Source of the DNA: Acinetobacter phage VB_ApiP_XC38
DNA: 64,000 nucleotides
Direction: 5' to 3' (one strand)
Sequence record: MN508356.1
Both the position numbers and the translations under genes were made by a program. Positions 39,109 through 57,671 of the stretch are shown here, one piece after another (within the stretch, counting starts at the first letter, position 1; every line of letters begins with the position of its first letter). A model generated the notes under the pieces. That model ran no database searches and was not told the DNA's origin. It saw only the letters and a program-made list of their open reading frames with translations.

Positions 39109-42100
39109 ATGGCAGGGACTGCCAAACCCAAGGACTATGTGTATAATCAGCTGCATGATTATGAGGTAACTATTATGACTAATTTATCCCCACAAGACGT
39201 AGATACTCGCTTAACTGAGACTCGTGAAGAGTTTTCAGCTGAGCATGATCGTCTATGGAATAGTTTGGATGATGAACGCATCTCTCGTATTGCAGGGGAT
39301 GAGACTAACGCTCAGTCACTACAACAGAACGTAGATGCTTTGTTGTCTAACGAATCACGATTGTCTACAGAAGTAGTACAACGTGAAGAAGGTGATTTAA
39401 GAAATATTAAATCATTAACTGAATTAGCGAAAGCTCTTTCGGATTATCGGATTAAAACTGATTTAGAAATTAACAATGAAAAGATTGCTAGAGAACAACT
39501 GGGTATTGATTTAAATACCCGTGTAGATAACTTCATCTCTACTTTTGATCATAAGTTTCTATTGGTTTATCAAACAATTGAAAATCTTCGTATAGAAACA
39601 CACTCATCTTTATCTTTGTTTGATGAGCGCATCAAGAAGTACGAAGAAATGCTTCAGGATATTACTACAGACTCAATTCAGATCACTATGGATAATGGTG
39701 AGATCAATATGGGTGCTTGGACAATTCTGTCTCAGGCTCGTCAATGGGACTTGGAAATCCTAGGCAAGTTTAAGGACTACCAGACTTCTACAAACCAGGA
39801 TATTGAAGACGCTCTTAAAGATATTCAGGATAACCTGCCTATTGAACAGGATATTATTGATAAAGCAATTGATGCCTTGTCTAACGCTACTGTTATTCAG
39901 GAGTTGGATAATAAGATTACAGGTAACATAGGAACTACTAACTTACTGTATGAAGCATTAATTAAAGAAGCCTCTGACCGTCAAAATGAGATGATTCTAT
40001 ACTCACAAACTATCGCTAATGAATTACAGGCAAATCAAGATGCCTTGTTAGCAGAAGTAAGAAGTGAGTCAGAAGCACGTGTTGATGCTTTACAGCGTGA
40101 AGCTTCTATTAGACAGCAAGAGCTGCTTAATGAAGCACTAGAGCGCTCTGCAGAAATTGATGAGCGTATCAAAGATATCGAAGGTGGTGTAACTACTGAC
40201 TTAACAGAAGCTTATCGCCGTATCGATGAAGTAAACGAAAAGGCTGAAAACTATAAAGCAGATTCTGATCGTAAACTTCAAGAATTAAATGATGAAGCAG
40301 ATCAGATCCACTCTGACATATCTGCTGAACAAGATGCTCGTATTGCAGCTATTAAGAAAGTAGAAGATGGTTTAACACAAGAAATTGCCTTCCGTAAGGA
40401 AGGTGATAATGCTTCTATGCTTGCCATTGATAACTATAAGACATCTAACGATTTAGCTCTTGCTAACGTACGAGAAGAGTTGGCTACTAACGTTACAGCT
40501 ACTACAGCTAACGCTACAGCTATTCAAGCTTTGGATACTCAATTAGTTATTGTAGGTGATGAAGCTACTGCTGCCAAAAATTTAGCTGCTAGTGCTACTC
40601 AGAAAGCAGAAACTGCTCTTAATGAGACTTCTTCATTAGCTTCTCAGATGACTACTGTTAATGCTTCTATTGATGGTATTCAGAATGATTTAGCTGATAA
40701 AGCGGATGCTGCAGCGTTTAACAATTTAAAAGCGCAAGTGACAGATCTTGATGGTGTAGTACAAACCACAGCTTCAGATGTTACTGCCCTTAAGACGCAG
40801 GTATCAGATATTGATAGTACAGTCACTGGTCAGGCTTCTGCTATTTCAGAACTTAATAGTACTCAAACTGCACATGGTGAAAATCTAACTCAGCTAAATA
40901 ACAGCACTACTGCCTTAAGATCTGAACTTGATATTGTTAAAGAAGACATGTCTCAGAAGGTAGGTGTAACTGCATTTAATGAGCTTAAAACAGAAGTAGA
41001 TAGGCATGATAATAGCATCACTGTTATATCTCAGGATGTTACTAATCTAAGTGCTAGCCTTGATACTGTTACTGCAACTTTAGAGACTAAAGCAGAAGCA
41101 GGTGCTGTATCTGCACTACAATCTAAAGTCGAATCCATTGATGGTAAAGTAGTATCTAACTCAGAGTCTATTCTTAGATTAGATGGGCAAGTAGCTACTA
41201 TTGAAGAGGGCTTAAATAATAAGCTAGACGCTTCTGTTATTCAGTCTTACTACACTAAGGTGGAGACTGATCAAGTAGTAGCAGGGGAGATTTCTGAGTA
41301 CGATACAAACTTGTATATTGGTGGGCAGAACCTTTGGTCTGTTGTAGATAATCCGCTAGTTAATGTAAACGGTACATCAACTAAATCGGTAATAAACAGT
41401 GCTGAGGAGCACTACCGTACTACGGTAAATACTTTTAATGCTTCTAGTGTATGTCAAGCAGTGATACATAATGCACTTGTAGATACTGGTTATATTTTTA
41501 AACAAGGTGATGACTTCACTTTATCTTTTGAAGTAAGAGCTGTACGTAACTCTAAAATAGCTTCTTTGTATTTTTATATGGGTGGTCAAGGAGTTAACCT
41601 TGTTAATAACCAAAATGTAACTACTGATTGGGTACGCGTAGTATTGCCAGTAAAAGCTAATGGAATACTTACATCTAATGATTCTCAGATGTTTGGTACT
41701 AGCCTACGATCCTCTGATGGGTGGGCAGTTAATGACTGGATTGAGTTTCGTCATGTACAGCTGCAACGTGGTAAAAAGGCTACTGAATATCAGAAGGCTT
41801 CAGCTAAAATTCTACAAACAGCTACTGCTAATGCTACTGCAATTAGCGGTATTAAATCCTCTATTGAAAACCTAGATGGTCGTATTACGTCTAACAGTAA
41901 TAGCATTACTAGTCTCAGCAATGATGTCACTCAGATTAATAATGAACTATCTACTAAAGCTAGTTCTGATGCTTTAAATGATCTTAAATCTACTGTTGAA
42001 GTTATGGATGGAAAGGTTACATCTAACGCTCAGAATGTAGTTCAGTTAACTAACGATGTTACTCAAATTAAAGGTGATATTCAGAACATGGCTACATCTA

Positions 42101-45100
42101 GTGCTTTAGAAGCATTGGATAGTCGTGTAGTAACTGCAGAAGGTAAGCTTGAATCTCAACAGTCTTCTATTACTAAGCTACAAGGTGACTTGGCAACTAC
42201 TGCTTCTGATGTTAGTAAGAAAGCAGATGCTTCAGCATTGAATGCCTTAGATCAACGTGTTGTTCAAACAGAAGCTAAAGTTGTTTCACAAGGTACTTCA
42301 ATAACAAACCTTCAAAATAATGTCTCTACTCTTAATAGTGAACTTGCAAAGAAAGCAGATTCAAGTGCCCTTACTTCTTTAAGCTCCCGTGTATCTGCTA
42401 ATGAAGATAGTATTACATCCCAAGGAAGTACCCTTACTAGTTTGCAAAACTCTATAAGCAGTGTTGGGGTAAACTTAGTTGCTCTTGCTGATCAGTTAAA
42501 AACTGTATCAATGACTTCAACTGCAGGCGAAAGCTATATCACTTGGTCTTTAACAGATCCTGCGCTTAAACCAGACACTTTCTACACTTTGTCATTTTGG
42601 GCATTACGCACCCCTAACGTAAAGAGCGTTGAATCCTTCTTAATTGCTAGTAGTGGTGCACATCACAAATCAAGTTATGTGACAGTTGGGACAACGAATC
42701 TTGTTCGATATTCAGTAACATTTAAAACCAATGCTAATGCTACTGGTGTTACTTATTCACTACGCTTTGATCTTAACGGTTCTAGTGATGGCAATAATGC
42801 GACATTAACAGTTCAGAAACCTCAGCTAGAGGAAGGACAAGTTGTAACGTACTGGAAACCATCTACTTACGATAAAGCAGATGCCAGTGCGCTAAGCACC
42901 CTTCAAAACACAGTTACGCAACAAGGTAATGCGTTAACTTCAAATAGTAATGCTATTACTACCTTACAAAATAACGTGAGTACCCTTAACGACTCTTTAG
43001 CAACTAAAGCTGATGCATCTGCATTAAGCATATTAGATTCTAAGGTTGTTGCTATTGATGGTAAAGTTACGTCTAATACCGCATCTCTTACTGCGTTAAG
43101 TAATGCAGTAACCAACGGTAGTAATAACTTATTATTTAATACCTTGTATAACAACTTATCCTATATATTAGCTAATGGTAACCATAGTGTAGCAATAGAC
43201 AGTGCAACGTATGCGCGATCTAAGGTTTTAAAGATTACTGCTACAGGCCCTGGGCAAGATGGTGTACATCAGGCTCTAATGACTGCAAGTGTTGCTACTG
43301 TTCCTAGTGCTACTGATCCTCTTGTCTTATCGTTTTTTGCAAAAGCAGATACCTCAGTATCTGTTAGGATTCAGCTTTTTGGTGGTGTTGGTCTTCAAAG
43401 TATTGCATTAACTAATACATGGACAAAGTACACTATCTCTACTCTAAGAAAGACAGCAGCGCATCTAGATACAACTACTTTGTATTTATCGTTGCTTTCT
43501 GCAGGTGTTGCATATTTTACTAATGTTCAGTTAGAGAGAGGAACAATACCAACTTCATATTCAGCAGCTTCTACTGAAACAGGTAATTTAATTGCTGCAA
43601 ACTCTACTGCACTTTCTTCTTTAAGCTCTACTGTTACTCAGCACGGGAACGCATTAACAAGCCAAGGTAATTCTATTACCTCTCTTAATAATAGTCTGGT
43701 AATTACAAACAGTAATGTAGAGAAAGCACAGAATACTGCTAATAATGCAGCAGCAGCAGCAGCTACAGCTCAAAATACGGCAGATACAAAAGCAGACGCT
43801 TCAGCCTTTAATGCCTTGTCTAATGCTGTGTCAAATCAAGGTGATACTATATCTTCACAGGGTAGTGCTATTACAGCGTTGAATAACACATTGAATAGCT
43901 TATCAGTTGGTTCAACTAACTTATTACCTGGCACTGACTTATCTACTCATACGAGTAAAGATGGTACTTTTAAGAGTGGTAATATGATTTCAGCTACTGC
44001 TACAACAGCAGGTAGTGTTGATATGCTTGCACTTAAATCTACTGTTGAACTGCTTGCTGGAGAATATGTAGTAAGTTTCTGGGCTAAAGCAGAAACTGCA
44101 GGTACTCAGTTTGGTGTTTATTTTTATAATCCAAATACCACAGTATCTGGAGTAGGGTCAAATGGGGCATCATCAAGCCGTGCTGATGGGCAGATTATAT
44201 TTACTCTGACTACCGTAATGACTAAGTACTTTGTTAAGTATAAGCAGTCAGGTAATACATCTAAAAAAGATGTGTTATTCCGTATTCAGGCTCCAGCATC
44301 AGGAACCAATAAAGTATGGTTAGCCTTACCTCAGTTGGAGGAAGGCAATGTTGTTACTGACTGGTCTCCTTCAACTAATGATATTGCTTCTTCTGCTGCA
44401 GTTAATTCATTGTCTTCTACAGTGAAGCAACAAGGAGATACTATAGTATCTCAAGGTAATTCAATCACTACCTTAAACAACAACATCACTACTATTAATG
44501 GGACATTAAGTACAAAGGCAGACTCTAGTGCCCTAGCTGCTTTAGATGGTCGTGTAACACAGACAGAAAATGGTTTAACTACCACTAACACAGATATTGT
44601 AAGACTACAGTCTGCAATCCAGTCACAGGGTGATGCTCTAAATTTAGACCCAAATTTTAAAGAGGGTCTGAAATTTATAATTACTGGAGAGCTTGCAACT
44701 GGCAACTCTGTAGTTGCTGGTAGTTATGGTGAAAGTGGTGGTTCAGGTTTACGAGTAACTAAAGCTAACGATGCTGGTACTTCAAACACTAATACGTTAG
44801 TAAGAGTACCTACTACCGGAGTATGGTTAAAAGCGGGACGTACTTATCGAGCTACTGTAAGAGCACGTAAGGTATCTGGAACAGCAGGTTTATTGTTACG
44901 TTGGATTAGAGCAAGTGATAATGTCGCAGTAGCAGTAAGGCAAGTAACGGCCACAGATACGACCAATTTTGTTGATTTCTCTTTAGACTATGCACCAACC
45001 TCAGATGTATTCGCATGGTTTGGCGTATGGGTGTACCCAAATGCGTGTGTTATCGATTACTCGTCAATTCGTTTAATAGATAGAACCTCTTCTGTAGAAA

Positions 45101-46548
45101 ACAGTGCAACAGCTTCAGCTTTGTCTTCACTAACTACACGTGTTTCAGATGTGGAAGGTGTGAACACAAGTCAAAGCAACAGCATTACTTCTCTTAATAA
45201 TAGTGTAACGGTTATTAGGAGCGACTTAGATACTAAAGCTAGTAACAGTGCAGTATCTAGTTTAGAAAGTCGCGTTATTGATGCAGAAAATAGTTTAACT
45301 AGTCAGAGTACTCAACTAACAACCTTAAAGTCAGGTATTGATGCTGCAGCTGTTATAGGTACTAACATGCTAATTAACACTGCAGAACCTTCCTCTGCAA
45401 ATGCGCCCAAAACTTCAGATGGTGTATCTTCAGTATCTGGTATGCTTGTTAGCTATGGTGTGGACACAGTGTTTACAATTAACAGTACAAGTGCTGAACG
45501 CTACTACAGAATGACATCACCAGTTAATGCATCTGCTGTCTTAAAACCAGGAAACACTTACACAATAAGTGCTGATATGAGAGGTAATGTCCTACCTGTG
45601 AGATGGCGTATTATTAGTTTTGCTAATAACGCATGGGCTGATATAGCCGTTAAAGTTCTCAGTACTATTACTAGTAATCAGTACACCAGACAGTCTTGTA
45701 CTTTTACAATACCAGCAAATGCTACAAACCTTATTATGTCTTTTCAGTCAGAGTCAACTGTTGTTGGTAACACTCTGTCAGTAAGACGATTAAAGCTTGA
45801 AGCAGGTAGTAATGCTACTTTGTGGGAACAACCTACTAGCGAGATTGCAACTACAAAAGCATTGAACCTACTAGATACTAGAGTAGTTAGTATTGATGGT
45901 AAGGTTACTTCTCACAGTAGCTCTATAACCAGATTAGAAACAGATGTAAGTGATAGCAGTGCTAAGTTAGATGTTGTTGCTGAATCCGTTAATGGTATGT
46001 CAGCATCTTACTTTGTTAAGACTGATGTTGATGGCCTAGTTTCAGGTTTTGGTTTATATAACGATGGCGTTGGTTCTGCGTTTGGTGTAAATGCGGACTA
46101 CTTTTACATTGGTAGAGGATCTGGCGGTAAGAAGCCATTTATTGTGACTACTACCCCACAAACTATTGATGGAGTTACATACCCTGTAGGTACATGGATT
46201 AGTGTAGCACTTATTGCTAATGCTACTATTGGTTCAGCACATATTGCTGATGCAGCAATTACTACAGCTAAGATCGCAAATGCAGCAATTACCAACGCTA
46301 AAATTGCTAGCCTAGATGCAGGCAAGATTAATACAGGAACTTTAGACGCTGCACGTATTGGGGCTGATTCTATTACTGCAGATAAGCTTCAGGTAGATGA
46401 GCTTAGTGCAATCAGTGCTAACTTAGGTACTTTGATTACTTATAAAGATCCAAGTCAGCCCCTTAAAGCCCGTATGGTAATACAAGGCAGCTTGATTACC
46501 GTGTATGATGACAACAACAAGTTACGTGTAAGGATGGGATTATGGTAG
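39109..46548 (+). CDS. giant modular tail fibre / receptor-binding protein (2479 aa). Alternative start at 39175.
   Basis: N-terminal alpha-helical region, then long coiled-coil heptad-like repeats ('ITSLxNxVTxLxxxLxxKADxSAL...'). These alternate with at least 5 beta-rich modules, each ending 'LQRGKKATEYQ', 'LEEGQVVTYWKPS', 'LERGTIPTSYS', 'LEEGNVVTDWSPS', 'LEAGSNATLWEQP' (CBM-like hallmark). C-terminal 'AxIxxAKIANAAITNAKIA' repeats. Confidence 0.6.
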   Translation: MAGTAKPKDYVYNQLHDYEVTIMTNLSPQDVDTRLTETREEFSAEHDRLWNSLDDERISRIAGDETNAQSLQQNVDALLSNESRLSTEVVQREEGDLRNIKSLTELAKALSDYRIKTDLEINNEKIAREQLGIDLNTRVDNFISTFDHKFLLVYQTIENLRIETHSSLSLFDERIKKYEEMLQDITTDSIQITMDNGEINMGAWTILSQARQWDLEILGKFKDYQTSTNQDIEDALKDIQDNLPIEQDIIDKAIDALSNATVIQELDNKITGNIGTTNLLYEALIKEASDRQNEMILYSQTIANELQANQDALLAEVRSESEARVDALQREASIRQQELLNEALERSAEIDERIKDIEGGVTTDLTEAYRRIDEVNEKAENYKADSDRKLQELNDEADQIHSDISAEQDARIAAIKKVEDGLTQEIAFRKEGDNASMLAIDNYKTSNDLALANVREELATNVTATTANATAIQALDTQLVIVGDEATAAKNLAASATQKAETALNETSSLASQMTTVNASIDGIQNDLADKADAAAFNNLKAQVTDLDGVVQTTASDVTALKTQVSDIDSTVTGQASAISELNSTQTAHGENLTQLNNSTTALRSELDIVKEDMSQKVGVTAFNELKTEVDRHDNSITVISQDVTNLSASLDTVTATLETKAEAGAVSALQSKVESIDGKVVSNSESILRLDGQVATIEEGLNNKLDASVIQSYYTKVETDQVVAGEISEYDTNLYIGGQNLWSVVDNPLVNVNGTSTKSVINSAEEHYRTTVNTFNASSVCQAVIHNALVDTGYIFKQGDDFTLSFEVRAVRNSKIASLYFYMGGQGVNLVNNQNVTTDWVRVVLPVKANGILTSNDSQMFGTSLRSSDGWAVNDWIEFRHVQLQRGKKATEYQKASAKILQTATANATAISGIKSSIENLDGRITSNSNSITSLSNDVTQINNELSTKASSDALNDLKSTVEVMDGKVTSNAQNVVQLTNDVTQIKGDIQNMATSSALEALDSRVVTAEGKLESQQSSITKLQGDLATTASDVSKKADASALNALDQRVVQTEAKVVSQGTSITNLQNNVSTLNSELAKKADSSALTSLSSRVSANEDSITSQGSTLTSLQNSISSVGVNLVALADQLKTVSMTSTAGESYITWSLTDPALKPDTFYTLSFWALRTPNVKSVESFLIASSGAHHKSSYVTVGTTNLVRYSVTFKTNANATGVTYSLRFDLNGSSDGNNATLTVQKPQLEEGQVVTYWKPSTYDKADASALSTLQNTVTQQGNALTSNSNAITTLQNNVSTLNDSLATKADASALSILDSKVVAIDGKVTSNTASLTALSNAVTNGSNNLLFNTLYNNLSYILANGNHSVAIDSATYARSKVLKITATGPGQDGVHQALMTASVATVPSATDPLVLSFFAKADTSVSVRIQLFGGVGLQSIALTNTWTKYTISTLRKTAAHLDTTTLYLSLLSAGVAYFTNVQLERGTIPTSYSAASTETGNLIAANSTALSSLSSTVTQHGNALTSQGNSITSLNNSLVITNSNVEKAQNTANNAAAAAATAQNTADTKADASAFNALSNAVSNQGDTISSQGSAITALNNTLNSLSVGSTNLLPGTDLSTHTSKDGTFKSGNMISATATTAGSVDMLALKSTVELLAGEYVVSFWAKAETAGTQFGVYFYNPNTTVSGVGSNGASSSRADGQIIFTLTTVMTKYFVKYKQSGNTSKKDVLFRIQAPASGTNKVWLALPQLEEGNVVTDWSPSTNDIASSAAVNSLSSTVKQQGDTIVSQGNSITTLNNNITTINGTLSTKADSSALAALDGRVTQTENGLTTTNTDIVRLQSAIQSQGDALNLDPNFKEGLKFIITGELATGNSVVAGSYGESGGSGLRVTKANDAGTSNTNTLVRVPTTGVWLKAGRTYRATVRARKVSGTAGLLLRWIRASDNVAVAVRQVTATDTTNFVDFSLDYAPTSDVFAWFGVWVYPNACVIDYSSIRLIDRTSSVENSATASALSSLTTRVSDVEGVNTSQSNSITSLNNSVTVIRSDLDTKASNSAVSSLESRVIDAENSLTSQSTQLTTLKSGIDAAAVIGTNMLINTAEPSSANAPKTSDGVSSVSGMLVSYGVDTVFTINSTSAERYYRMTSPVNASAVLKPGNTYTISADMRGNVLPVRWRIISFANNAWADIAVKVLSTITSNQYTRQSCTFTIPANATNLIMSFQSESTVVGNTLSVRRLKLEAGSNATLWEQPTSEIATTKALNLLDTRVVSIDGKVTSHSSSITRLETDVSDSSAKLDVVAESVNGMSASYFVKTDVDGLVSGFGLYNDGVGSAFGVNADYFYIGRGSGGKKPFIVTTTPQTIDGVTYPVGTWISVALIANATIGSAHIADAAITTAKIANAAITNAKIASLDAGKINTGTLDAARIGADSITADKLQVDELSAISANLGTLITYKDPSQPLKARMVIQGSLITVYDDNNKLRVRMGLW

Positions 46549-46946
46549 TAACCATTACCATTGTATTAATTTTTATATATGCTCTGTTGATGCTTCGGCA
46601 TCACAGAGCTAAGGAGATAGATGTGCCACAAGGTTTACAAGCTTGGGATGCTGACGGAAAGAACGTAGTTGACCTGACAGATAGACAATTAACACTATTT
46701 AAAAGATATGTTCTGCAAAATACAGATACTAACGTGTATACCAGAGATTACACATTAGTTGGTATTTCCCCAGAAATTACTGTTGCTTATATTGAGACTA
46801 AGCAAATAGGTACTGAAACACAGCGTTTAGCACGTAAAGATGGCATTGCCGTAACTATTGTCGGTAAAGATACCTTCAGGCTTACGTCTGTATTGCCTCT
46901 TTCTACAGCTAATCCTTATATAATTAACTTTTACTACTTTAGGTGA
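46542..46946 (+). CDS. membrane-anchored protein (N-terminal signal-anchor), possibly fibre assembly or lysis-associated
   Basis: 134 aa, N-terminal TM 'VVTITIVLIFIYALLML'. Start overlaps the fibre gene stop (ATGGTAG). Confidence 0.4.
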   Translation: MVVTITIVLIFIYALLMLRHHRAKEIDVPQGLQAWDADGKNVVDLTDRQLTLFKRYVLQNTDTNVYTRDYTLVGISPEITVAYIETKQIGTETQRLARKDGIAVTIVGKDTFRLTSVLPLSTANPYIINFYYFR

Positions 46947-46949
46947 TTT

Positions 46950-47606
46950 ATGGAAGGTTTTAGTGTATTCAATGATCGTGGTGAGCTTATTATTGACTCT
47001 ACCATTAAAAACATAGGTACTGTATCTACACAACCTATTGGTGAAATTATAGGTTGGTATGATAGCTCTGTTACTAATGCGCCATCTTGGGTAGATAAAG
47101 ATATAGGTGTTACATCTTTACCTGATATAGGAGGGCAAGTACCTCTTACACTTCTTCGCCCTAATGATGGGGCTTGTGGCTGTGGTGAGACATACTATTC
47201 AAAAAACGCAGGTGATCTTATCCATTTACGTAACGACTACTCTATTGATACTGGTTATTTAGATGTATTTGATGCTGATGGTAACCTTATATGGTCTGCT
47301 AATAGTGCAGCTAAAGTACCTAGGGTAACAAAAGTAATTAATGTTACTGCTCAGCAAATTAAAGACGGTACTTCTCAATTCTATATAGGTAATGGATGTC
47401 TTATGATGAATGGATTACCTTGTATTATGTATCCAGGGCCTATGGGAACACTGCGTGTTGGTGGATTATTTTGGAGATACACAAAATCTACAGGTATGCT
47501 TAACGTTGGGTGGGGTTACTTCGGTAATGCAGGAATTGCTGACTATGTACAAATGGCTTATGGGGATGTAGGGTTAAACCTATACATATACGAATTTGGT
47601 GTATAA
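46950..47606 (+). CDS. hypothetical protein
   Basis: 218-aa ORF containing 'GACGCGETYY'. Confidence 0.4.
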   Translation: MEGFSVFNDRGELIIDSTIKNIGTVSTQPIGEIIGWYDSSVTNAPSWVDKDIGVTSLPDIGGQVPLTLLRPNDGACGCGETYYSKNAGDLIHLRNDYSIDTGYLDVFDADGNLIWSANSAAKVPRVTKVINVTAQQIKDGTSQFYIGNGCLMMNGLPCIMYPGPMGTLRVGGLFWRYTKSTGMLNVGWGYFGNAGIADYVQMAYGDVGLNLYIYEFGV

Positions 47607-47778: not shown

Positions 47779-47794
47779 GAAGCCTAAAAAGAAA

Positions 47795-47819
47795 AAGACC
47801 TCTATTGAGGTCTTTTTTT
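47795..47819. terminator. rho-independent terminator (bidirectional)
   Basis: AAAAAG, hairpin 'agacctc-tatt-gaggtct', then TTTTTTT. Confidence 0.7.
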
Positions 47820-53712: not shown

Positions 53713-54211
53713 AGAAAGAACCTTTAGGTTTAGACCAGGGTTGTAGTGCCTCAAGTGGCACAGTAACTCCAGAATTTCTGAGTTGGTCTGCAGCTCTTGC
53801 TGCTCTTGCTTGTTGTTCAAGCATACTACTTATGCTGTCTGAGGACTGCTCAAATATTCCAATACCTGCCTGTTCTCGCATGCTTCTTCTTTGGTTACGA
53901 ATGTTAGTTTGAGTTACCGCGTCACTTAACATGTGGTTAGCAGCTTCATCAATGATGTCTTTACGATTTAACGGTGCAACACCAGAAGGTAATAACAGGG
54001 TAGATGCTAGTTCTTCCGAGAATTTAACAGTAGCTGATAGCACCATAACATCATTAGGTACAGTAAAGTCTTCAGATACACATTCATTTCTTTCACCAGA
54101 CAATGTGAAGTCATAGACTTGATTCTCTTTTATATGTCTGATGTTTAATACAGCTCTCCCTCTGAAGTGGGTAACTGTAAATCCTGCTTTTAATGCCATA
54201 CTTAATTTCAT
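53711..54211 (-). CDS. hypothetical protein, paralog of 54222..54530 with C-terminal extension
   Basis: Shares 'MKL..A.K.GF' start and 'KFSEELASTLLLPSGVAPLNRKDI' (vs 'RFTEDIANSLSLVGVAPITADNI') with the neighbouring gene. Confidence 0.45.
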   Translation of the reverse strand: MKLSMALKAGFTVTHFRGRAVLNIRHIKENQVYDFTLSGERNECVSEDFTVPNDVMVLSATVKFSEELASTLLLPSGVAPLNRKDIIDEAANHMLSDAVTQTNIRNQRRSMREQAGIGIFEQSSDSISSMLEQQARAARAADQLRNSGVTVPLEALQPWSKPKGSF

Positions 54212-54221
54212 GGTTTACTCC

Positions 54222-54530
54222 TTATCTCTTAAATCGAGTGTTCTTGATGTTGTCTGCAGTAATAGGTGCAACACCTACTAGACTGAGTGAATTGGCAATG
54301 TCCTCAGTAAAGCGTACGTACAAGACTAATTCCATAATCTCATTATCTATCTCTGTATCGATAGGCAGGAAAAATTCTTCTCTGATAGGCTCTCTAGTAC
54401 CTTCTTTAAAGCCTGCGTGTACCCTGACCTTAATTAATTCGTCATTAGCTGTAGTGAGTCCGCTATATACCGTACAGTCTTTGTATCGGCGTAACACGAA
54501 GCCTAGTTTGAATGCATCTATTAGTTTCAC
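54222..54530 (-). CDS. hypothetical protein, paralog of 53711..54211
   Basis: 102 aa. See the paralog evidence for 53711..54211. Confidence 0.45.
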   Translation of the reverse strand: MKLIDAFKLGFVLRRYKDCTVYSGLTTANDELIKVRVHAGFKEGTREPIREEFFLPIDTEIDNEIMELVLYVRFTEDIANSLSLVGVAPITADNIKNTRFKR

Positions 54531-54538
54531 AGATCTCT

Positions 54539-54566
54539 CCTAAAAGAAAAGCAGCCTAAGCTGCTT
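54539..54566 (-). terminator. − strand terminator overlapping the DNA polymerase stop codon
   Basis: − strand reads 'aagcagc-ttag-gctgctt' then TTTCTTTTA. The polymerase TAG lies in the loop. Confidence 0.5.
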
Positions 54567-57183
54567 CCTTGAGTTTTGCGTAGTACTTTGCCATGGCTGT
54601 ATCAACCACATTACATAGTTCTACTTTGTTTGCAGTCCTCGGTAATGTAATACCGTGTGACCAGTTAGGGTGGAATAAATCCAAATCACCACCTAATTTA
54701 ACTTCGTCATGCCAGATCTCAGGAAGACCTTGCCACTCCATCTCTTTAGTGAGGTGTTTGTTTGCGAACTCTACTACCTCTAAGTCATCTTCGATAACTA
54801 GATAGATAGCATCATGAATTAGAGCTACAGGCATAATCCGATACTTGTATGGAGATGCCCAGACTTTCTTCATGAATGCCACAGCAGCACGGTTATTCAA
54901 TAGGCCGTATGATTGACCCATAGCATTACCTGCTGTTCTGGCTTCAGCTTGTGCTTCGTACGTAGTGTAGGAGTTACCTAACACTGTCTTCTTGAGAAGA
55001 GGTGTACGTAGTTTCAAACCAAAGGCTAAGATAACAAAGCCTTGTTCTACAGCTTCCTTCTGAATACGATTGGCAATGAACTTATCTGAGTGTTCATAAA
55101 GCTCGTGATATAGAGCTTCAATCTGCTTAGCAACTTCTTCGCTAAAACCGCAGTTCTTAATTAAGCCGTGGTAAGTACCACCATACGTAAGTAAGAAGGT
55201 AGGTGCTTTAGAGTCTTGACGTTCATCTGGATACTTCTTTTCAATACTGTTAATTGACTCTACAGAAGTAGGATCAATACCAGTCATCTTGTGACCAAAG
55301 TATGAGAAAGCACGTAGACAGTGACCATCGTAACCATCTGTATAAACCTTTAACTTGTTAGGGTCTTTGGTTAATAGAGCTGAGATACGGTCTTCTAATG
55401 ATGCAAAGTCTGCACCACAGAAAATCTTACCTACAGGCCCGGCAAAGCAAGTCTTAATTAACTTACCTAAAGGCCCAGATGCAGGGATCTGTTGTAGGTT
55501 AGGTTCACTACCAGATAAGCGACCTGACTTAGTACCACCAATGTTGAACGAACCATGAAGGTAAGCTCTACCATCAGCTTTAAGCCAAGCATCTTCAAAT
55601 GCAGGTATGAAGGCAGATAGAATCTTAGCGATCTTAGAATACTTGCGTAATGCATTAAGTACTTCAAGCTTCTCTTCATCACCTGTATGTTTGGTTAGAG
55701 ATTTAATAATCTTTTCACCAGTGGCTCTATCTCCTTCTTTGGTGTATTCCAGTACTGGCATTTCCATTACGTCATACAGAAGGATTGCTAGTTGCTGACC
55801 GCTGTTGTAGTTAATAGGATCATTAAACTTCTCACGTGGATGCTGCTTAGTTTTGAGCTTAGCATTAGTCTTCATCATCTCACTGAGCTGAATCCGGTTA
55901 GTTGCTTCTTTCACGTAAGCATTAGCTTCCATGATGTCAATAAGCTCTTTACATTCGCTTTCTAGCTGAGCTTTTACTTCCTGAACTCGTTCAGGTATTA
56001 AAGGCATACCATGACACTCAATCTGGATAATCAGAACTGCAGAAGGAATCATCAAATTAAGATAGATCTCTTCTTGGTTCTCCTCAACCATGATTGGGTA
56101 GTAGGTTTGATGTACGTACCACGTAGATAGACAATCCACTAAGTTATAGCGTAATAGTCTGTCAGGTGGGATACGTCTAATATCCTTGATATCGTCCTCT
56201 GCCCAGTTACCTGCAAACTTGTGAGCTAGGCTTTTTAAACCATAGCTTTCACGTGCAGTACTGTTAAGACTCAGATACGCAATGATCTTAGTATCATCAA
56301 AGCAACGAGTTAATACCTCAATTCCTTTGAGCATACCTTCGTAATCTAGTGGATGTTTCATCCATAGAGCATGAACCAAACACTTGAAGTCAAAGGTAGC
56401 GTTATGTGCAATGAGCTTACCTCGATAACCCTCAAAGAACTTACGGAGTAATTCCTTGGTTCTAGGAGCTTCTCCACGTACACCGTGGAATCCGTTCTCT
56501 GGTTGAACAGGTGTGTACTCAACAAAGAATGCACAGCCTGAATCAATAGAATCAGCAAATGCAATAGTACCTAAACCTGCATCACGTAGGTTCAATGAGA
56601 AAGTCTCAATATCTACTACTAGCTGAGGTTGGTTATGCAAGTAAGCTAACTCTTTCTTGATACCGGATAAACTGTTTGGGTAACGCTCTTCACGAATGAT
56701 GTCTGCACCTATCTCCACATACGCACCATGGTAGTGAGTAGTAACTGCTTCGATAGACAGATCAATCTTTTCTTGTTGGTTTGGGTTATGGATCAATGCA
56801 CCATAGCCTAACGAGTAGACTACGAACATATCTTCATAACCTGGAATACCACAAGGCAGAACATAACCTAAGTTGGTGTCTGCTTTAGGTGTCTTGGCTA
56901 ATACCTTGAAATAAGCAGAGTCTGCACAGAATAGGTACTTGACTCCTGCAGCTTTGAACTGCTCAAGCCATGTACCTAAATAGTCCTTAATCAAACTAGC
57001 AGGTGCTTTGTTTGACTTAAGATACTCAAGGCTGAATGCAACAATCTCTTCACGAGGAATACCTGCATCAACCATAGGGTTTACATAGTGTTGTACTAGC
57101 TTGCCTTCTCTGAAAGCAGACTCTTTAATGAGAATCCCAATCTTAGGATTAGGATCTCCATCAACAAACTTTAGTGTCTTCAC
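54556..57183 (-). CDS. DNA polymerase, family A with 3'-5' exonuclease domain (N4 gp39-like)
   Basis: Exo I 'VVDIETFSL' (DxE). Pol motif A 'GADFASLEDRISAL'. Motif B 'RQDSKAPTFLLTYGG'. Motif C 'ALIHDAIYLV'. 875 aa. Confidence 0.9.
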   Translation of the reverse strand: MKTLKFVDGDPNPKIGILIKESAFREGKLVQHYVNPMVDAGIPREEIVAFSLEYLKSNKAPASLIKDYLGTWLEQFKAAGVKYLFCADSAYFKVLAKTPKADTNLGYVLPCGIPGYEDMFVVYSLGYGALIHNPNQQEKIDLSIEAVTTHYHGAYVEIGADIIREERYPNSLSGIKKELAYLHNQPQLVVDIETFSLNLRDAGLGTIAFADSIDSGCAFFVEYTPVQPENGFHGVRGEAPRTKELLRKFFEGYRGKLIAHNATFDFKCLVHALWMKHPLDYEGMLKGIEVLTRCFDDTKIIAYLSLNSTARESYGLKSLAHKFAGNWAEDDIKDIRRIPPDRLLRYNLVDCLSTWYVHQTYYPIMVEENQEEIYLNLMIPSAVLIIQIECHGMPLIPERVQEVKAQLESECKELIDIMEANAYVKEATNRIQLSEMMKTNAKLKTKQHPREKFNDPINYNSGQQLAILLYDVMEMPVLEYTKEGDRATGEKIIKSLTKHTGDEEKLEVLNALRKYSKIAKILSAFIPAFEDAWLKADGRAYLHGSFNIGGTKSGRLSGSEPNLQQIPASGPLGKLIKTCFAGPVGKIFCGADFASLEDRISALLTKDPNKLKVYTDGYDGHCLRAFSYFGHKMTGIDPTSVESINSIEKKYPDERQDSKAPTFLLTYGGTYHGLIKNCGFSEEVAKQIEALYHELYEHSDKFIANRIQKEAVEQGFVILAFGLKLRTPLLKKTVLGNSYTTYEAQAEARTAGNAMGQSYGLLNNRAAVAFMKKVWASPYKYRIMPVALIHDAIYLVIEDDLEVVEFANKHLTKEMEWQGLPEIWHDEVKLGGDLDLFHPNWSHGITLPRTANKVELCNVVDTAMAKYYAKLKEAA

Positions 57184-57194
57184 ATAGTGGCTCC

Positions 57195-57671
57195 TTAGTT
57201 ACCATGGTTTACGTGATAACCTAAATCATTCTCTGCCTTTTTACGGGCAGCTACTGCTTCTTCTATAGTTTTAAAACTACCAAGTGACTTAGCCTTACCT
57301 TTGTGACCAATAATCGCCCTAAACTTACCTCTTTCTGCATATACTCCTGTATAACCAGTAGTGTTGGCTTTAGAGGTAGTTTTATTTCTAGCATTTTCAG
57401 TACGAGTAACTTCTCTTAAGTTACTCCACTTATTATTGCTTCTGTCGTGATCTATGTGATCTACAAATTCAGGCAAGTAACCTTTTTGGTGTAACCATAT
57501 AAGTCTGTGAACACCTATCTGTTTACCGCATATATAAACCCTGTAATAACCCTTATCAGAAATAGAACCTACTGTTTTTCCTACCATATTGCTCATACGA
57601 TGGGTTTTCCAGGTAGCAACTCCTGTATTTGGGTCATAGTTAATACGGCTTCTGATGTAATCAGCATCCAT
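57195..57671 (-). CDS. HNH-AP2 homing endonuclease (paralog 3 of 3), immediately upstream of the DNA polymerase gene
   Basis: 'HRLIWLHQKGYLPEFVDHIDHDRSNNKWSNLREVTRTENARN' plus 'GYTGVYAERGKFRAIIGHKGKAKSLGSFKTIEEAVAARK'. Confidence 0.75.
   Translation of the reverse strand: MDADYIRSRINYDPNTGVATWKTHRMSNMVGKTVGSISDKGYYRVYICGKQIGVHRLIWLHQKGYLPEFVDHIDHDRSNNKWSNLREVTRTENARNKTTSKANTTGYTGVYAERGKFRAIIGHKGKAKSLGSFKTIEEAVAARKKAENDLGYHVNHGN

Follow-up and report, generated by a model that had tools for sequence, protein, structure and literature searches.

The tail needle gp18 of phage SU10 (7z4b_EA) is a trimer that combines a gp26-like coiled coil with a C-terminal beta-prism and acts as a plug of the nozzle channel, from which it is released prior to ejection (PMC9509320). 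The protein gp56 of phage DEV (429 aa), the counterpart of LUZ7 gp59, is described as a short fibre or plug sealing the tip of the tail tube (PMC11445570). PblB, a prophage tail protein for galactose-specific adhesion, has a coiled coil, repeats and a galactose-binding-like domain (PMC4508584), and other phage adhesins decorated with carbohydrate-binding modules (CBMs) have also been described. Acinetobacter is a priority target of phage therapy; however, in the literature on the phages Presley, nACB1 and At2 and on Acinetobacter phage diversity, the host range of Acinetobacter N4-like phages has no described molecular basis, and the gene treated here is called only "tail protein" or "tail fiber", without analysis. 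Here, the giant tail protein gene of vB_ApiP_XC38, an N4-like phage of Acinetobacter pittii with a genome of 79,328 bp, was analyzed computationally within a stretch of 64,000 nucleotides of the record MN508356.1 (the window). The gene had already been deposited; what is new is the homology of its scaffold to needles and tip fibres. It is judged somewhat probable that the protein represents, in evolutionary terms, a much enlarged tail needle (or short fibre of the tail tip) which carries lectin-like cassettes and serves as the receptor-binding fibre, since its C-terminus, its shaft repeats and its gene position all point to a needle or tip fibre.

The gene is a single intact open reading frame (ORF) of 2479 aa plus stop codon, without internal stops, as the first-pass annotation, made from the letters of the window, had proposed. 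Its product is 100% identical to QFR59721.1/YP_010105024.1, deposited as "tail protein" of vB_ApiP_XC38. The window also has the N4-like (Schitoviridae) core, including terminase, portal, capsid, tail and ejection proteins and a virion RNA polymerase of 3323 aa, which supports the earlier assignment of the protein, as a phage fibre or receptor-binding protein, to an N4-like phage. The features of the protein (anchor, coiled-coil segments cc0 to cc5, globular modules M1 to M6 and tip) are listed in Table 1.

Tip domain and coiled-coil shaft

The C-terminal tip starts with a short coiled coil, followed by a Phage_Tail_Tip-type domain that contains (A)AIT(x)AKI repeats; it includes a AAITTAKIANAAITNAKIA stretch at aa 2382-2400, and finishes in the terminal motif ...VYDxxNKLRVRMGLW. 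The last 237 aa score 27.8 bits against Phage_Tail_Tip (PF09327), for which the cut-off is 22. Among PDB entries, the tip matches the SU10 needle gp18 (E 2.9e-12) and 9ze4_N (E 7e-9), and the alignments reach the last residues (...VYDxxxxLRVxxGxW). The chain 9ze4_N, one of three in its entry, is LUZ7 gp59 (E 4e-171); the tip aligns directly to LUZ7 gp59 (424 aa) up to the last residue (E 1e-14), and gp59 is also collinear with the helical aa 421-523 of the XC38 protein (E 5e-5). Using tblastn, 90-95% of the tip length was covered in the "tail fiber" of Pseudomonas N4-like phages such as LUZ7 and PA26 as well as in Kuravirus needles. In the protein family described below, the tip (aa 2281-2400) is conserved in 91-92 of 93 members.

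The C-terminal repeats had been read as a possible trimerisation or chaperone element. No Peptidase_S74 or other chaperone family was found by Pfam with the full-length protein or module by module, and the C-terminus aligns with the mature end of SU10 gp18 and LUZ7 gp59; a C-terminal intramolecular chaperone was thus rejected. Trimerisation stands only loosely, through PF09327 and the SU10 beta-prism; because the tip is homologous to this beta-prism, the repeats probably supply the strands for a trimeric beta-structure. A lambda J protein proper was also rejected, as only PF09327 is present and PF13550 (Phage-tail_3) and FN3 were not found. An insertion hotspot was observed inside the tip at ~46260-46400 (aa 2385-2430), just after '...AHIADAAIT', where a near-identical metagenomic variant (P0003) and nACB1 have ~130 extra residues, and Presley and several metagenomic relatives have a whole CBM-like module.

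The fibrous segments have no proline, autocorrelation at lag-7, lag-14 and lag-21, and a hydrophobic period of 3.4-3.65 residues. Self-BLAST of the whole protein gave the identity match only, and comparison of protein chunks revealed the internal similarity: the fibrous segments are strongly alike, and cc0 resembles the later linkers. The segment 896-1118 is a 44-aa repeat with ~5 copies. By phmmer, the shaft repeats match gp26 needles (4lin, E 2.7e-6; 2poh, 3c9i and 4zkp, E ~6e-4; also 4zxq), and cc1 matches the gp26 tail needles 4lin and 4zxq together with reovirus sigma-1. Heptad periodicity, lack of proline and gp26 matches are those of a gp26-type coiled-coil shaft, which would be trimeric by analogy with its homologues. 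The alternation of coiled-coil repeats with globular modules, noticed earlier from the translation, was confirmed in this way.

Gene position in N4-like phages

Downstream of gp59, LUZ7 has two genes, of 105 aa and 237 aa, and after them the long-fibre gene. The XC38 order is the giant gene, a ~107-aa gene and a 218-aa gene, with PHROG families common to their LUZ7, Presley and nACB1 counterparts. In both LUZ7 and the window, primase and exonuclease lie upstream on the opposite strand, forming the same divergent junction. The gene position is thus conserved in Schitoviridae by the shared junction and the two homologous small genes, and comparison with N4-like fibres, the check proposed at first sight of the sequence, led to LUZ7 gp59 through both position and tip homology. 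Orthologues in the same position are Presley gp60 (2133 aa), nACB1 gp37 (2489 aa) and the At2 protein (1348 aa).

Neither the window nor the complete nACB1 genome, which is collinear with it, was found to have a long-fibre gene 3' of this cassette or any other fibre-sized gene, for which reason the XC38 protein is probably the sole candidate receptor-binding protein of the clade. A long fibre of the DEV gp53 type was rejected as a description of the protein: domains of gp66/gp53-type lateral appendages (beta-barrel collar, esterase, pyocin-knob) were not found in Pfam or PHROGs, and the N-terminus is all-helical in the AlphaFold2 (AF2) model.

CBM-like modules

The XC38 protein has six globular modules, each of 135-165 aa instead of the ~200 aa first estimated, which alternate with the coiled-coil segments. 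All six begin with G-x-N-L(L/V), and five end in LExGxxxTxW, the signatures being located at aa 885, 1240, 1475, 1743 and 2230. The pattern L[EQ].G.{3,4}[TS].[WY] was observed five times, whereas in 20,000 shuffles it arose by chance 0.015 times on average and never more than 2 times. The five signature-bearing modules of the first-pass annotation, given there as a minimum, were thereby recovered, together with a sixth, M5, which has the ending IDYSSIRLIDRT as in classical CBM4/9 domains.

A module hidden Markov model (HMM), iterated over the 122 homologues retrieved with the full-length protein and rebuilt without the window or near-identical sequences, scored 51-79 bits for M1, M2, M3, M4 and M6 and 17 bits for M5, the maximum in 300 shuffles being 8.1. 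M5 and its Klebsiella relatives aligned end-to-end with the module family by hhalign (probability 92%, E 6e-7), with a slight circularity, as M5 itself is one of the 43 rows of the family alignment. Additionally, BLAST showed similarity between M2 and M4.

With the full-length protein, nothing above noise was obtained from Pfam, and the module-wise scans were informative: for CBM_4_9 (PF02018), M6 has 26.0 bits (cut-off 25.9), and M4 (20.0 bits) and M1 (15.0 bits) are below the cut-off. For M4 with short flanks, AF2 predicted from the 43-sequence alignment of family modules a beta-sandwich with one alpha-helix on each side (predicted local distance difference test, pLDDT, 85.4; predicted template modelling score, pTM, 0.82). 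By Foldseek, the PDB matches of this model at E 3e-7 to 1e-4 are CBM4-2, CBM16, CBM61, CBM4 and Bacteroides sugar-binding proteins, with the phage receptor-binding components phi812 baseplate protein and Tuc2009 BppA in the same range; CBM22 and CBM29 are also among the structural matches. Among viral models (BFVD), the match to XC38 itself is followed by a tail fibre from an Enterococcus phage and by streptococcal PblB.

The predicted fold of M4 is thus a beta-jelly-roll (galactose-binding-like), and the model supports a CBM-type beta-sandwich for this module; for the other modules, a CBM-type fold is suggested by homology. The earlier description of the modules as beta-rich and CBM-like is supported by this structure prediction and by the Pfam scores of M6, M4 and M1. 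The signature had also been said to end carbohydrate-binding domains; it does mark a domain end, but in the M4 model it closes the last beta-strand and takes in the turn that leads to the following helix and, because of this location, marks a domain boundary and is not a ligand site or sugar-binding motif. According to the model, the LExG end and the GxNL start together delimit the domain. Sugar binding by the modules is a candidate function, by analogy with their structural relatives; the multivalent or multi-receptor glycan binding suggested in the first-pass annotation is likewise a candidate.

N-terminal anchor

The N-terminal region, presumed to be the site of attachment to the virion, had been described as an alpha-helical anchor, and in the AF2 model of the N-terminal 360 aa, long helices take up almost all of aa 28-359, preceded by disordered aa 1-26. 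The model is elongated, and its extended helices and low pTM (0.23) made it unsuited to a fold search. A near-invariant motif within this region (Table 1) has a pLDDT of 44-53 in the monomer, the surrounding helical anchor being variable, and the window of aa 181-240 keeps at least 50% identity in 92 of 93 homologues. The motif may be a contact with the tail or tail tube, or may fold only in the trimer; the low monomer confidence is as expected if folding needs an oligomer or a partner. The anchor has a weak profile match to the helical region of 9ze4_N (E 0.005). Judged by sequence, the attachment end is specific to the Acinetobacter-phage clade.

Homologues and proposed module exchange

Of the 122 homologues, 93 share the N-terminal ~340-450 aa (lengths of 1379-3914 aa, median 2182), and many of these 93 are encoded on contigs of 72-80 kb. 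With the anchor profile, a search of 1.84 billion representatives yielded 67 clusters at E<=1e-30, and a profile of the five-module alignment retrieved only 2 proteins from a collection of 5.8 billion. The 93 anchor-bearing proteins carry 0-8 modules (median 4), including six in nACB1 and four in Presley; the six modules of XC38 are at the high end of the family range but not exceptional, contrary to the expectation that five tandem copies would be unusual. In three complete short proteins from the anchor-profile clusters, of 589 aa (P0138), 622 aa (P0134) and 721 aa (P0130), the anchor is joined almost directly to the tip with no module. The family runs from needle-sized proteins to giants, an evolutionary series from a small tail plug of ~590 aa with no cassette to a giant adhesin of 3914 aa.

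The nearest relative of M1 is the first module of nACB1. Modules M2 to M6 have no close relative among the 93 proteins except in one 97%-identical metagenomic variant of 2608 aa (P0003). Compared with this variant, the anchor, coiled coils, M1, M4 and C-terminal domain have 97.6-99.4% identity, M3 and M6 96-97%, M2 90.4% and M5 87.8%; its tip is swapped relative to XC38, with ~130 aa extra. A count over 2385 collinear aa placed 32 of the 68 substitutions in M2 and M5, which together have 291 aa. This excess suggests diversifying selection or micro-recombination in specific cassettes.

The nearest outside relatives of M4 (E 1e-31) and M5 (E 1.6e-10) are J-like "phage tail tip fiber" proteins of Klebsiella, and because of these relatives an exchange of cassettes across host genera and tail types is proposed. 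The Klebsiella proteins (P0083-P0116) are lambda-J-like, annotated as 'phage tail tip fiber / DUF1983', and have 4146-4296 aa, except P0112 (3570 aa) and P0113 (3708 aa). Their modules are ~40% identical to M4, with eight modules in those listed, and they are encoded on contigs of ~110 kb.

Proposed function and alternative explanations

Here it is proposed that the ancestral scaffold began with a conserved helical anchor at the N-terminus, continued as a shaft of trimeric coiled coil and finished in a beta-prism tip, as kept in the family members of 590-720 aa. In XC38, the shaft would have been lengthened and six mutually divergent CBM4/9-like beta-jelly-rolls inserted between coiled-coil segments, so that a trimeric fibre would bear 18 lectin-like domains, three at each of six nodes. 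During infection, the N-terminus would hold the fibre on the distal end of the tail tube, probably plugging it, and the jelly-rolls would bind host surface polysaccharides (capsule or lipooligosaccharide) reversibly and with avidity; separate modules may read separate glycans. The conserved tip would subsequently engage a terminal receptor or the outer membrane, after which the fibre would be released, the tail channel opened, and the virion RNA polymerase and DNA ejected.

Several points weigh against this proposal. The ~1,300 helical residues would extend over ~200 nm if fully extended, and only short tail fibres were found in nACB1 by transmission electron microscopy (PMC10057805); in view of this difference, the shaft may fold back, or thin fibres may have been missed by negative stain. 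The anchor profile had no match to LUZ7 gp59 by hhalign, and the anchor has no convincing homology to the N-termini of LUZ7 gp59, SU10 gp18 or P22 gp26, so that attachment to the tail tip is only presumed. The same C-terminal domain is present in Acinetobacter myophage tail proteins and siphophage J proteins, and the tip domain alone therefore does not fix the position in a podovirus. The placement of DEV gp56 relies on low-resolution docking (PMC11445570). As to the modules, M6 exceeds the CBM_4_9 cut-off by only 0.1 bit, the module-wise Pfam scans gave no match for M2, M3 and M5, and M4 is the sole module modelled.

Some of these points favour an arrangement in which the domains have the same functions but the protein is a lateral fibre, with several trimers around the neck or tail as for N4 gp66 or DEV gp53 and a separate protein as the plug. 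The unmatched anchor and the occurrence of the C-terminal domain in myophage tail fibre proteins would fit such a fibre, primary adsorption is usually by several lateral fibres, and the XC38 protein may have assumed the role of the LUZ7-type long fibre, the gene for which is not present in the Acinetobacter clade. On the other hand, the all-helical N-terminus has no similarity to the beta-barrel collar of DEV gp53, the C-terminus, shaft repeats and gene position indicate a needle or tip fibre, the family members without modules are needle-sized, and no alternative plug gene was seen. The lateral arrangement is considered possible but unlikely.

It is also conceivable that the jelly-rolls are not lectins but spacers, protein-binding domains or immune-evasive decorations, and that the tip alone recognises the host. 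The residues conserved between modules (GxNL start, LExG end) are structural, the fold is also found in non-lectins such as toxin receptor-binding domains and MAM and GOLD domains, and the tip is swapped between near-identical variants, as for a specificity determinant. The top structural matches, however, are overwhelmingly CBMs and phage receptor-binding components, and the hypervariability of the family is found in the modules, which are exchanged with Klebsiella phage tail-tip proteins; the substitution excess in M2 and M5 would not be expected of inert spacers. Modules without a lectin function are held to be improbable. A head fibre or capsid decoration protein was rejected as a very remote prospect: its support is the label 'minor head protein' of phrog_1775 and phrog_18412, the matches to which lie at aa 903-1333, within the coiled-coil repeats, and are much weaker than those to tail-protein PHROGs, while the C-terminus is a tail-tip domain, the relatives are annotated as tail or tail fibre and the gene is syntenic with tail fibre genes.

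If the protein is an expanded needle or tip fibre, a single gene would hold all the host-recognition information of the phage in a readable modular layout, in which the anchor and the tip are conserved, the tip has an insertion hotspot, and interchangeable lectin-like cassettes are separated by coiled-coil spacers. This would offer a natural chassis for host-range engineering and a source of new Acinetobacter-specific glycan-binding domains. A further and more speculative idea, which is regarded as doubtful, is that in Acinetobacter N4-like phages a single axial "fishing line", a needle of up to ~200 nm, replaced the two-fibre system of related phages, in which long lateral fibres are combined with a short plug at the tip. 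In that case, the shaft would be a modular rack in which 0-8 lectin cassettes are inserted, swapped across lineages (including Klebsiella siphophage-type elements) and diversified singly; the glycans would be read in series through a thick capsule, and release of the fibre would trigger genome ejection.

Gene start and neighbouring genes

The annotated start of the gene is ATG 39109, located 29 nt from the divergent upstream gene and without a clear Shine-Dalgarno sequence; a second ATG at 39175 (M23) has a GAGGT Shine-Dalgarno 7 nt upstream. Orthologues mostly begin at the equivalent of M23 with 'MSNLTP'. Based on this Shine-Dalgarno, the orthologue starts and the disorder of aa 1-26 in the AF2 model, the true start is probably M23, giving a real protein of 2457 aa. 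Two antisense ORFs of 83-84 aa within the fibre gene, 42903-43154 (-) and 44451-44705 (-), are probably chance ORFs.

Upstream of the fibre gene, across the divergent junction, the minus strand carries the genes for thymidylate synthase, ribonucleotide reductase, exonuclease and primase. On the plus strand, the fibre gene is followed by two small conserved ORFs, a terminator-like hairpin and the endolysin gene. The first small ORF as listed begins at 46542 (134 aa) and overlaps the fibre stop codon; GTG 46623 has an AAGGAG Shine-Dalgarno 6 nt upstream and is probably where the gene begins, giving ~107 aa. This gene is of the same family as Presley gp59 (106 aa), nACB1 gp38 (100 aa) and LUZ7 gp58 (105 aa), based on links through phrog_7961 and phrog_2427, the BLAST match to LUZ7 gp58 being weak. 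The 218-aa gene is related to Presley gp58, with weaker links to nACB1 gp39 and LUZ7 gp57; direct BLAST against LUZ7 gp57 was negative, and this link consists of a weak shared match to phrog_4062 only. LUZ7 gp58 and gp57, the counterparts of the two genes, gave no useful relative in the PDB. The two genes form a cassette conserved beside the tip-fibre gene in Acinetobacter and Pseudomonas N4-like phages.

The hairpin, a strong one, lies between the 218-aa ORF and the endolysin gene, which are 510 nt apart; it is possibly a bidirectional terminator and likely ends a three-gene unit. Elsewhere in the collinear genome of nACB1 (53826-57641), the DNA polymerase is annotated in several pieces with an HNH homing endonuclease gene between them, and the corresponding region of the window has one ORF of 875 aa (54556-57183).

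Table 1. Features of the XC38 tail protein gene and of the region downstream of it, with positions in the window.
Feature	Residues (aa)	Position (nt)	Strand	Characteristics
Whole ORF		39109..46548	+	2479 aa; identity with XC38 tail protein
Helical anchor	23-450	39175..40458	+	Conserved, family-defining; presumed virion attachment site
Near-invariant motif	177-217	39637..39759	+	YExMLQDITxDSxQITxDNGExxxGAWTILSQARxWDLEI
cc0	451-734	40459..41310	+	Lag-44 and lag-7 periodicity; hydrophobic period 3.45; no proline
M1	735-897	41311..41799	+	CBM-like; ends LQRGKKATEYQ; leave-out HMM 79 bits
cc1	898-1117	41800..42459	+	44-aa repeat, ~5 copies; lag-44 autocorrelation 1.93
M2	1118-1252	42460..42864	+	Ends LEEGQVVTYWKPS; leave-out HMM 59 bits
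cc2	1253-1335	42865..43113	+	Self-similarity, periodicity
M3	1336-1487	43114..43569	+	Ends LERGTIPTSYS; leave-out HMM 51.5 bits
cc3	1488-1598	43570..43902	+	Ala/Asn/Ser-rich; self-similarity, periodicity
M4	1599-1755	43903..44373	+	Ends LEEGNVVTDWSPS; module chosen for modelling
cc4	1756-1839	44374..44625	+	Matches P22 gp26 (2poh, 3c9i, 4zkp)
M5	1840-1995	44626..45093	+	Divergent; without LExG signature; ends IDYSSIRLIDRT; leave-out HMM 17 bits
cc5	1996-2081	45094..45351	+	Self-similarity, periodicity
M6	2082-2242	45352..45834	+	Ends LEAGSNATLWEQP; leave-out HMM 63 bits
Tip domain	2243-2479	45835..46545	+	PF09327; homology to SU10 needle and LUZ7 gp59
Small downstream gene		46623..46946	+	~107 aa from GTG 46623 (probable start); listed ORF begins 46542 (134 aa)
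Second downstream gene		46950..47606	+	218 aa; phrog_4524, phrog_4062
Hairpin		47792..47817	.	11-bp stem, terminator-like, A and T runs on flanks

Comparison with known systems

Like the CBM families 4, 9, 16, 22, 29 and 61 (PF02018), three XC38 modules have weak-to-borderline Pfam matches, and M5 and its relatives have the classical ...IDxxxV.D ending. Unlike them, sequence identity is only 8-16%, five XC38 modules have the phage-typical LExGxxxTxW ending, and the modules are placed within a coiled-coil fibre and not beside a glycoside hydrolase. The same module type, including a 'LEKGNKATDWSPAPED'-like ending in the homologue set, is found in CBM adhesion devices of Gram-positive phages, such as Tuc2009 BppA, the phi812 baseplate 'CBM-cenC' protein, streptococcal PblB and the tail fibre of Enterococcus phage EFP01, and PblB also shares the combination of coiled coil, repeats and a galactose-binding-like domain, in its case for galactose-specific adhesion. 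These devices are baseplate components and tail-associated proteins of siphophages or myophages, whereas the XC38 array is on a podovirus needle-type scaffold in a phage with a Gram-negative host.

The lambda-J-like giants of Klebsiella (4244-4296 aa, on ~110 kb elements) have the same array of coiled coils and modules, with eight modules. They carry PF09327 and J-type domains, from which they are taken to be central fibres. They differ from the XC38 protein in their J N-terminal domains (PF13550, FN3) and siphophage-type tails, and are without the XC38-family C-terminal domain by phmmer.

LUZ7 gp59 (9ze4_N) and DEV gp56 are from the same phage family and share with the XC38 protein the gene position, the homologous small genes and the tip (E 1e-14). 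They have only 424-429 aa, a J/FN3-like N-terminus (phrog_31) and no CBM modules, and work with a separate long fibre, which the Acinetobacter clade does not have.

As in SU10 gp18 and P22 gp26, which are trimeric needles, the XC38 protein has a coiled-coil shaft with detectable sequence similarity, and its C-terminal tip is homologous to the beta-prism of SU10 gp18 up to the last residue. The XC38 protein has 2479 aa, compared with 322 aa in SU10 and 233 aa in P22, and differs from these needles in its six inserted jelly-roll modules, its ~1,300 helical residues and an anchor unrelated by sequence. The role proposed for it would be theirs, that of a central surface-sensing plug which is then released.

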